A stretch of DNA of 13,774 nucleotides, from positions 1 to 13,774 of the IMG/VR virus record IMGVR_UViG_2778261448_000011. One strand, given 5' to 3'. Position numbers and translations under genes: made by a program. Each line of letters starts with the position of its first letter. Within the stretch, counting starts at the first letter, position 1. This DNA comes from a virus (Duplodnaviria; Heunggongvirae; Uroviricota; Caudoviricetes). The notes under the pieces are model-generated. The model searched no databases. It worked only from the letters and a program-made list of their open reading frames with translations, and had not been told where the DNA came from. Below, piece by piece: positions 11,668 to 12,228 of this stretch.

Positions 11668-11951
11668 TGGACTCCTTCGCGAAATATACGATTATTGACT
11701 GGATAGCATTCCTTCAGGTTTTGCTCATCTGGTTTTATATGGCTTACAGGAGTGGGCAGTGGATTGTCAACATGGCCCGTAGCAGGGGATGGCGTTGGTG
11801 GAACCGAAAGAATAAAAAAGCACTGGCATTGGATTCGTTTTACGAAGCATTCAATCTTAACAGCCTTCAGCCTGGTTCTGTCATTGTAGTCACCACTCAA
11901 AGCGGCATGACGATACAAATTCACAAGCCAAAGGAGGAAGGTCGTGGCTAA
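11664..11951 (+). CDS. Hypothetical protein (95 aa) with one hydrophobic segment
   Basis: ATGA overlap with the upstream gene; hydrophobic IIDWIAFLQVLLIWFYMAY followed by a basic stretch. Confidence 0.45.
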   Translation: MMDSFAKYTIIDWIAFLQVLLIWFYMAYRSGQWIVNMARSRGWRWWNRKNKKALALDSFYEAFNLNSLQPGSVIVVTTQSGMTIQIHKPKEEGRG

Positions 11952-12228
11952 CCTGCAACTTGCCGTCAAAGGTGAATACTTCGATGCCATGATTCGCGGA
12001 GAGAAAACGGAAGAGTATCGCTTGTGTAATGACTACTGGAATAAGTGAATTATGTTCCGGGAATATGACCGTCTGATTATCACAAAGGGATATCCGAAGC
12101 GAGACGACTCCAGTCGCAGAATGAACGTCCCGTATGACGGATATGAAATCAAGACAATCACACATCCCCACTTCGGCGATAAACCGGTAAAGGTGTTCGC
12201 GATAAAGGTGAATATCGGCAATGAATAA
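11944..12228 (+). pseudogene. ASCH-like small gene interrupted by an in-frame TGA (12046-12048)
   Basis: GTG 11944 after a strong RBS aggagg (11932-11937) gives 34 aa, then TGA, then the same frame continues for 58 aa from ATG 12052 with no RBS of its own; LAVKGEYFDAMIRGEKTEEYR resembles ASCH-type domains. Confidence 0.45.

Follow-up and report, generated by a model that had tools for sequence, protein, structure and literature searches.

Proteins of the ASCH superfamily carry a conserved N-terminal octapeptide, G-X-K-X-X-[ETS]-X-R (PMC9599836). For YqfB of Escherichia coli, a small single-domain ASCH protein with N4-acetylcytidine amidohydrolase activity (PDB 9kyh and 9kyf), catalysis by a Thr-Lys-Glu triad and an arginine oxyanion hole has been described, with Lys21, Thr24, Arg26 and Glu74 as the residues involved (PMC6972931). 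ZmASCH of Zymomonas mobilis, a larger protein of ~143 residues, is cited in PMC9599836 for a reported single-stranded RNase activity. In phages, a small ASCH-domain gene is known as ST104 orf6 (YP_006362.1), HK022_34, gp09 of Stx2a_F451 and L0064 of 933W; all are the same gene, belong to family PHROG 625 and are located upstream of xis and int. Lambdoid and P22-like prophages commonly carry it as an accessory gene in their early-left ('ea') region, just ahead of orf55, xis and int, and hundreds of such phages and prophages have it in uninterrupted form. A protein search collected homologues in 669 protein clusters across the Enterobacterales, nearly all of 93-96 amino acids, and NCBI names the orthologues 'ASCH domain-containing protein'. 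Our literature search found no paper on the function of this phage family, and in the literature searched we found no experimental data on RNA or nucleoside binding or on catalysis by its members.

The DNA analysed here (the window; 13,774 nucleotides of an IMG/VR virus record) belongs to a mosaic lambdoid prophage, of which it makes up the early region. Genes for a DnaB-like helicase, an O-like initiator, cII and cro are found on the minus strand, and the plus strand carries cI, N, cIII, kil, RecT and a Gam-like protein, followed by the 'ea' genes DUF5405, DUF2737, Ea22, DUF551 and DUF4752. The ASCH gene comes next and is followed by orf55 (PHROG 676), xis and a lambda-type int that reaches the end of the window. 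The neighbouring genes match their families over the full length, so the ASCH gene is the only broken one in its surroundings. At the position where lambda has rexAB, a stretch of ~750 bp (3743-4490) that separates the end of cI from the pL/operator region gave no megablast match among 50,697 phage records; its open reading frames of 107 amino acids (minus strand, 3890-4213) and 120 amino acids (plus strand, 3960-4322) match no Pfam or PHROG family, and the stretch may be an uncharacterised moron.

Upstream of the ASCH gene lies an intact gene of the DUF4752 family on the plus strand (11664-11951; Pfam DUF4752, residues 2-84 of 84, E = 9e-34). Its TAA and the GTG start codon of the ASCH gene overlap by 8 nt (GTGGCTAA), and the same DUF4752/ASCH arrangement is annotated in ST104 and HF4s; a GTG start overlapping the upstream gene is likewise shared by the orthologues of ST104, HK022, Stx2a_F451 and 933W. 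The DUF4752 gene has six window-specific substitutions, all of them crowded into 30 nt (11756-11785), as if a short patch had been brought in by recombination from an allele not yet sampled. The Shine-Dalgarno sequence AGGAGG, read directly from the sequence at 11932-11937, ends 6 nt before the GTG at 11944 and is kept in all five aligned orthologues. From this GTG a reading frame of 34 codons (11944-12045) runs into a TGA (12046-12048) and then continues in the same frame: an A follows the stop as the first base of an ATT codon, and after it come the ATG at 12052 and a further 57 codons, the last ending at 12228, so that a 58-codon open reading frame starts at an internal methionine, Met37 (12052-12228), ahead of the natural TAA (12229-12231). 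The best Shine-Dalgarno sequence in front of ATG 12052 is a 4-nt UAAG, 6 nt upstream. The strong ribosome binding site, the GTG start, the in-frame stop and the lack of a ribosome binding site of its own for the downstream half had all been recorded in a preliminary description of this DNA, and we confirm them.

Both halves belong to one gene. When Arg35 is restored, the joined translation aligns with PHROG 625 from residue 1 to 93 on profile positions 1-93 of 98 (E = 5.3e-51). Because this match spans the stop and the orthologues are uninterrupted, the in-frame continuation is not due to chance. At the DNA level the gene aligns without gaps and with 94-97% identity to the phage orthologues, among them the single 285-nt genes of ST104, HK022, Stx2a_F451 and HF4s; the best E. 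coli match is 97.9% identical, and about a third of the complete E. coli genomes also carry the single-gene annotation. The end-to-end PHROG match and the ungapped alignment thus define the nonsense allele as one plus-strand gene of 94 codons plus TAA (11944-12231). The preliminary estimate of about 93 codons was nearly right; the gene has 94 if the position of the stop is counted. No pair of independently conserved genes with separate starts was encountered; the idea of two such genes was discarded, since the orthologues are single genes and residue 37 is variable (Phe in 20, Met in 15, Val in 15 and Leu in 7 of 64 homologues, others in the remainder). An exact-protein look-up of the 58-residue product in public assemblies returned no record.

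The ends of the gene vary between loci. Its last codons (12216-12231 and the homologous loci) exist in at least three versions (...NIGNE*, ...NIDG* and ...NISTEY...), and the start codon is GTG in 90 and ATG in 29 loci. Given these variable 3' codons and the split between GTG and ATG, both gene ends coincide with mosaic junctions of phage modules.

Codon 35 is a sense codon in every orthologue that we compared. It reads CGA (Arg) in all four annotated phages (ST104, HK022, Stx2a_F451 and HF4s), in 124 of 124 fetched loci with the flanking pattern and in 120 of 120 complete gene extractions from IMG/VR. At the protein level, down to 73% identity, residue 35 is arginine in 63 of 64 homologues and cysteine in one. 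Relative to the orthologues, the stop is a single C-to-T transition at 12046 (CGA to TGA). A 39-mer centred on the site (GTGTAATGACTACTGGAATAAGTGAATTATGTTCCGGGA), for which megablast seeding requires the T, had no match in 5,426 complete E. coli genomes or in 50,697 phage records, and the C-restored (CGA) 39-mer, as a positive control, matched 1,197 places in 979 E. coli genomes. Exact-pattern scans of IMG/VR, of the GTDB species representatives and of the JGI metagenomes likewise gave no TGA allele. The proposal that this is one gene with a nonsense mutation is borne out by these comparisons.

Is the protein an ASCH protein at all? Pfam ASCH (PF04266) is matched by residues 6-29 only, with 13.9 bits and E = 0.09, which is below the gathering threshold of 21.2 bits; NCBIfam gave no model match and a sequence search of the PDB nothing useful. 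The octapeptide is present as G19-E-K21-T-E-E24-Y-R26. Among 64 homologues, K21, E24 and R26 show no variation, and G19 is kept in at least 90%. An AlphaFold model of an orthologue with 96% identity (P0004; pLDDT 83) places a strand at residues 2-8, a helix at 10-17, a strand at 23-27, a second helix at 30-37 and further strands at 41-48, 59-63, 67-72 and 82-88. In a Foldseek comparison of this model with the PDB, the top 15 entries were all ASCH proteins, including 3iuw, PH0355, ZmASCH, PF0470 and YqfB, with a best E-value of 1e-2, a probability of 0.99 and TM scores of 0.49-0.56. With moderate confidence, the predicted structure can be assigned to the PUA-like beta-barrel ASCH fold. The earlier label 'ASCH-like' is thus backed by the motif and the predicted fold, but the Pfam score stays under the threshold.

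The structural neighbours are distant. ZmASCH, 3iuw, 2z0t and 1xne rank highest against the model, with probabilities of up to 0.99 and TM scores of 0.49-0.56, and they share only 12-22% identity with the phage protein at E-values of 1e-2 or weaker. YqfB is of similar build, a small single-domain protein with a TM score of ~0.55, and shares the octapeptide positions Lys21 and Arg26; BLASTP with an approximate YqfB sequence gave no alignment. The nucleophile Thr24 of YqfB is replaced by an invariant Glu24 in the phage family, and by the criterion of the catalytic triad the phage protein is therefore not an amidohydrolase of the YqfB type.

In the model, residue 35 is located within helix 2, between two strands. 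The stop in this helix parts the signature motif from most strands of the barrel: the N-terminal fragment comprises strand 1, helix 1, strand 2 and the octapeptide G19-x-K21-x-x-E24-x-R26, and the end of helix 2 and strands 3-6 are encoded behind the TGA, that is, four of the six modelled strands and 18 of the 25 invariant residues. Since a product of 34 residues keeps GxKxxExR but only two barrel strands, the protein is most likely inactive, and the model points to a likely loss of function of the truncated form. A codon changed in one step from CGA to TGA, a rare allele and a product without the conserved core together mark the locus as a nonsense allele. We are probably dealing with an ordinary one, which arose by the C-to-T exchange at 12046 in one ancestral 94-codon ASCH-domain gene.

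For the expression of this allele we assume the following course. The ASCH gene would be transcribed as part of the leftward early (pL) operon; no sigma-70-like promoter was found in 11600-12800, which fits this assumption. Ribosomes would start at GTG 11944, presumably coupled to translation of the upstream DUF4752 gene, and RF2 would terminate at the UGA and release a peptide of 34 residues. Some unprogrammed leakage is likely, either by near-cognate decoding of the UGA as tryptophan or by re-initiation at AUG 12052, and either event would be incidental. Terminator-like hairpins with T-runs were noted directly 3' of the ASCH gene (two adjacent ones, 12230-12283) and directly 3' of orf55 (12458-12477); five such sites occur in 1.2 kb where 1.1 are expected. 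The first hairpin behind the ASCH gene is kept in two other loci (L125 and L126, the latter being contig SRR25824493_328, described below), and weak, sub-threshold Rfam matches (RsmY, rimP leader, istR) stack on these hairpins.

The stop looks recent, or else it is an error. Compared with the consensus, the window allele has eight synonymous and three non-synonymous differences, the stop included. Besides the stop only two changes are private to the window copy, 12102 C>A (synonymous) and 12123 T>G (I60M), which corresponds to a private-change rate of ~0.7 per 100 nt against 0-2.1 in the neighbouring genes. The intact neighbours and the lack of an excess of private changes thus indicate a recent event. 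General decay of the prophage is not supported, as the neighbours match their families in full length and private substitutions are not in excess in the ASCH gene. Other copies of the gene have been broken independently, namely 4 of 120 in IMG/VR: by a GAG-to-TAG exchange at codon 40 (L066), by an insertion of ~1.95 kb behind roughly codon 51, flanked on both sides by the same 6 nt (L053), by an internal rearrangement or frameshift after codon 75 (L032) and by a 1-nt indel at the 5' end near the start (L041). Occasional inactivation is therefore normal for this accessory gene.

A sequencing or assembly error, with C as the true base at 12046 and an intact gene, is an alternative that we regard as unlikely. 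It would account for the absence of the exact window allele from IMG/VR, the GTDB representatives, the JGI metagenomes, the E. coli genomes and the phage records, and it would suit a difference of one base in a gene that shows no other decay and has intact neighbours. However, the sequence around 12046 contains neither a homopolymer nor any other context prone to errors, and the private changes at 12102 and 12123 suggest a distinct allele rather than one stray error, although they could be errors themselves. The identical substitution is present in at least one independent assembly and in three similar contigs, on another allele. By exact look-up of the 34-residue fragment we found the Logan contig SRR25824493_328 (10.8 kb), in which an internal open reading frame (3001-3105) ends at the identical TGA at codon 35; three further contigs have the same neighbours, and L136 also carries the TGA. 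The occurrence of the same stop in an independent assembly means that the substitution arises in nature. Many short public contigs (L127-L135 and L137-L145) break off at codon 34 or 35; these ends are most simply explained as a selection artefact of exact matching and not as evidence for a stop.

The second allele is clearly a different one. It begins with ATG behind another upstream gene, has ~13 substitutions in the 3' 240 nt and ends in another C-terminus; it and the window allele are ~5% apart. Both adjoin a lambda-type orf55-int module; downstream in SRR25824493_328 are orf55, a lambda-type int and a pectinesterase gene, which we take to be ybhC beside attB-lambda. The tract around the stop that the two alleles have in common (12023-12062) is invariant in nearly all alleles, and short-patch recombination and recurrence therefore cannot be separated. 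Most simply, the TGA on two alleles is accounted for by a recurrent C-to-T exchange at codon 35; only four G:C-to-A:T transitions would turn a codon of the consensus gene into a stop, one of them at CGA35. A methylation hotspot was rejected, since no Dcm site (CCWGG) is present in the ASCH gene. It is very improbable that the coincidence has a deeper cause, either a mutational hotspot or a leaky-stop allele that has been selected because it throttles a costly ASCH protein in lysogens. If the leaky-stop reading were true, residual readthrough with tryptophan or re-initiation at AUG 12052 would provide the protein at a low dose.

A functional split gene is a further alternative. In such a gene the 34- and 58-residue products, the latter arising by re-initiation at AUG 12052 after termination, would associate and restore ASCH activity. 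Terminating ribosomes can restart at a distance of 3 nt (translational coupling). AUG 12052 lies exactly three nucleotides past the stop with the weak UAAG 6 nt upstream, and the break would, according to the model, fall into a helix between two strands and not into a strand. On the other hand, no orthologue is organised as two genes, the 58-residue product has not been recorded by gene callers in public assemblies, and Arg35 and Ile36 would be lost from the conserved helix. Moreover, residue 37 is not kept as methionine in the family, which means that no second start has evolved, and we judge a working split gene to be very unlikely.

Programmed readthrough of the UGA had been named in the preliminary description as the other possible reading of the stop; such recoding would insert tryptophan or selenocysteine and make the full-length protein at a regulated level. 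A UGA with A as the next base terminates relatively weakly. The best-known example comes from phage Qbeta, where programmed readthrough at the UGA-A of the coat gene leads from the coat protein to A1, in a phage gene that is translated in E. coli as well. The Qbeta stop is conserved, and its extension yields a virion protein that is required. The window, by contrast, has a stop in place of a conserved sense codon in a rare allele, and the locus is therefore not of the Qbeta readthrough class. In E. coli, UGA readthrough at a measurable level results from competition of Trp-tRNA with RF2 (PMC10570021), and this, the UGA-A context, the same TGA on two alleles and the cysteine at residue 35 in 1 of 64 homologues speak in favour of recoding. 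Against it, the codon is CGA in essentially every orthologue, with Arg35 in 63 of 64 homologues; a programmed stop would be expected to be conserved among orthologues, with constraint downstream, and the TGA was seen only in the window and one other rare allele. No stimulatory structure is apparent either: the 81 nt from 12040 to 12120 fold less stably than shuffled sequences (MFE z = +1.41), and neither a SECIS element nor another Rfam family was detected at the TGA at permissive thresholds. TGA ends 11 of the 17 tiled genes of the operon, and three other genes have the TGA-A context with a separate gene behind each, so TGA-A serves as an ordinary terminator here. Recoding is thus hardly credible and we do not retain this reading; its selenocysteine variant falls with the missing hairpin and Rfam SECIS match and with a residue 35 that is arginine in 63 and cysteine in 1 of 64 homologues.

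In consequence, the annotation should show one ASCH-domain pseudogene interrupted by an internal stop, in keeping with the practice of the NCBI pipeline in similar cases, and neither two small genes nor a recoding site. That a second allele has the very same stop is a minor curiosity. For the biology of these phages, the ASCH gene is one more example that the accessory genes of the lambdoid 'ea' region are dispensable and are occasionally knocked out.
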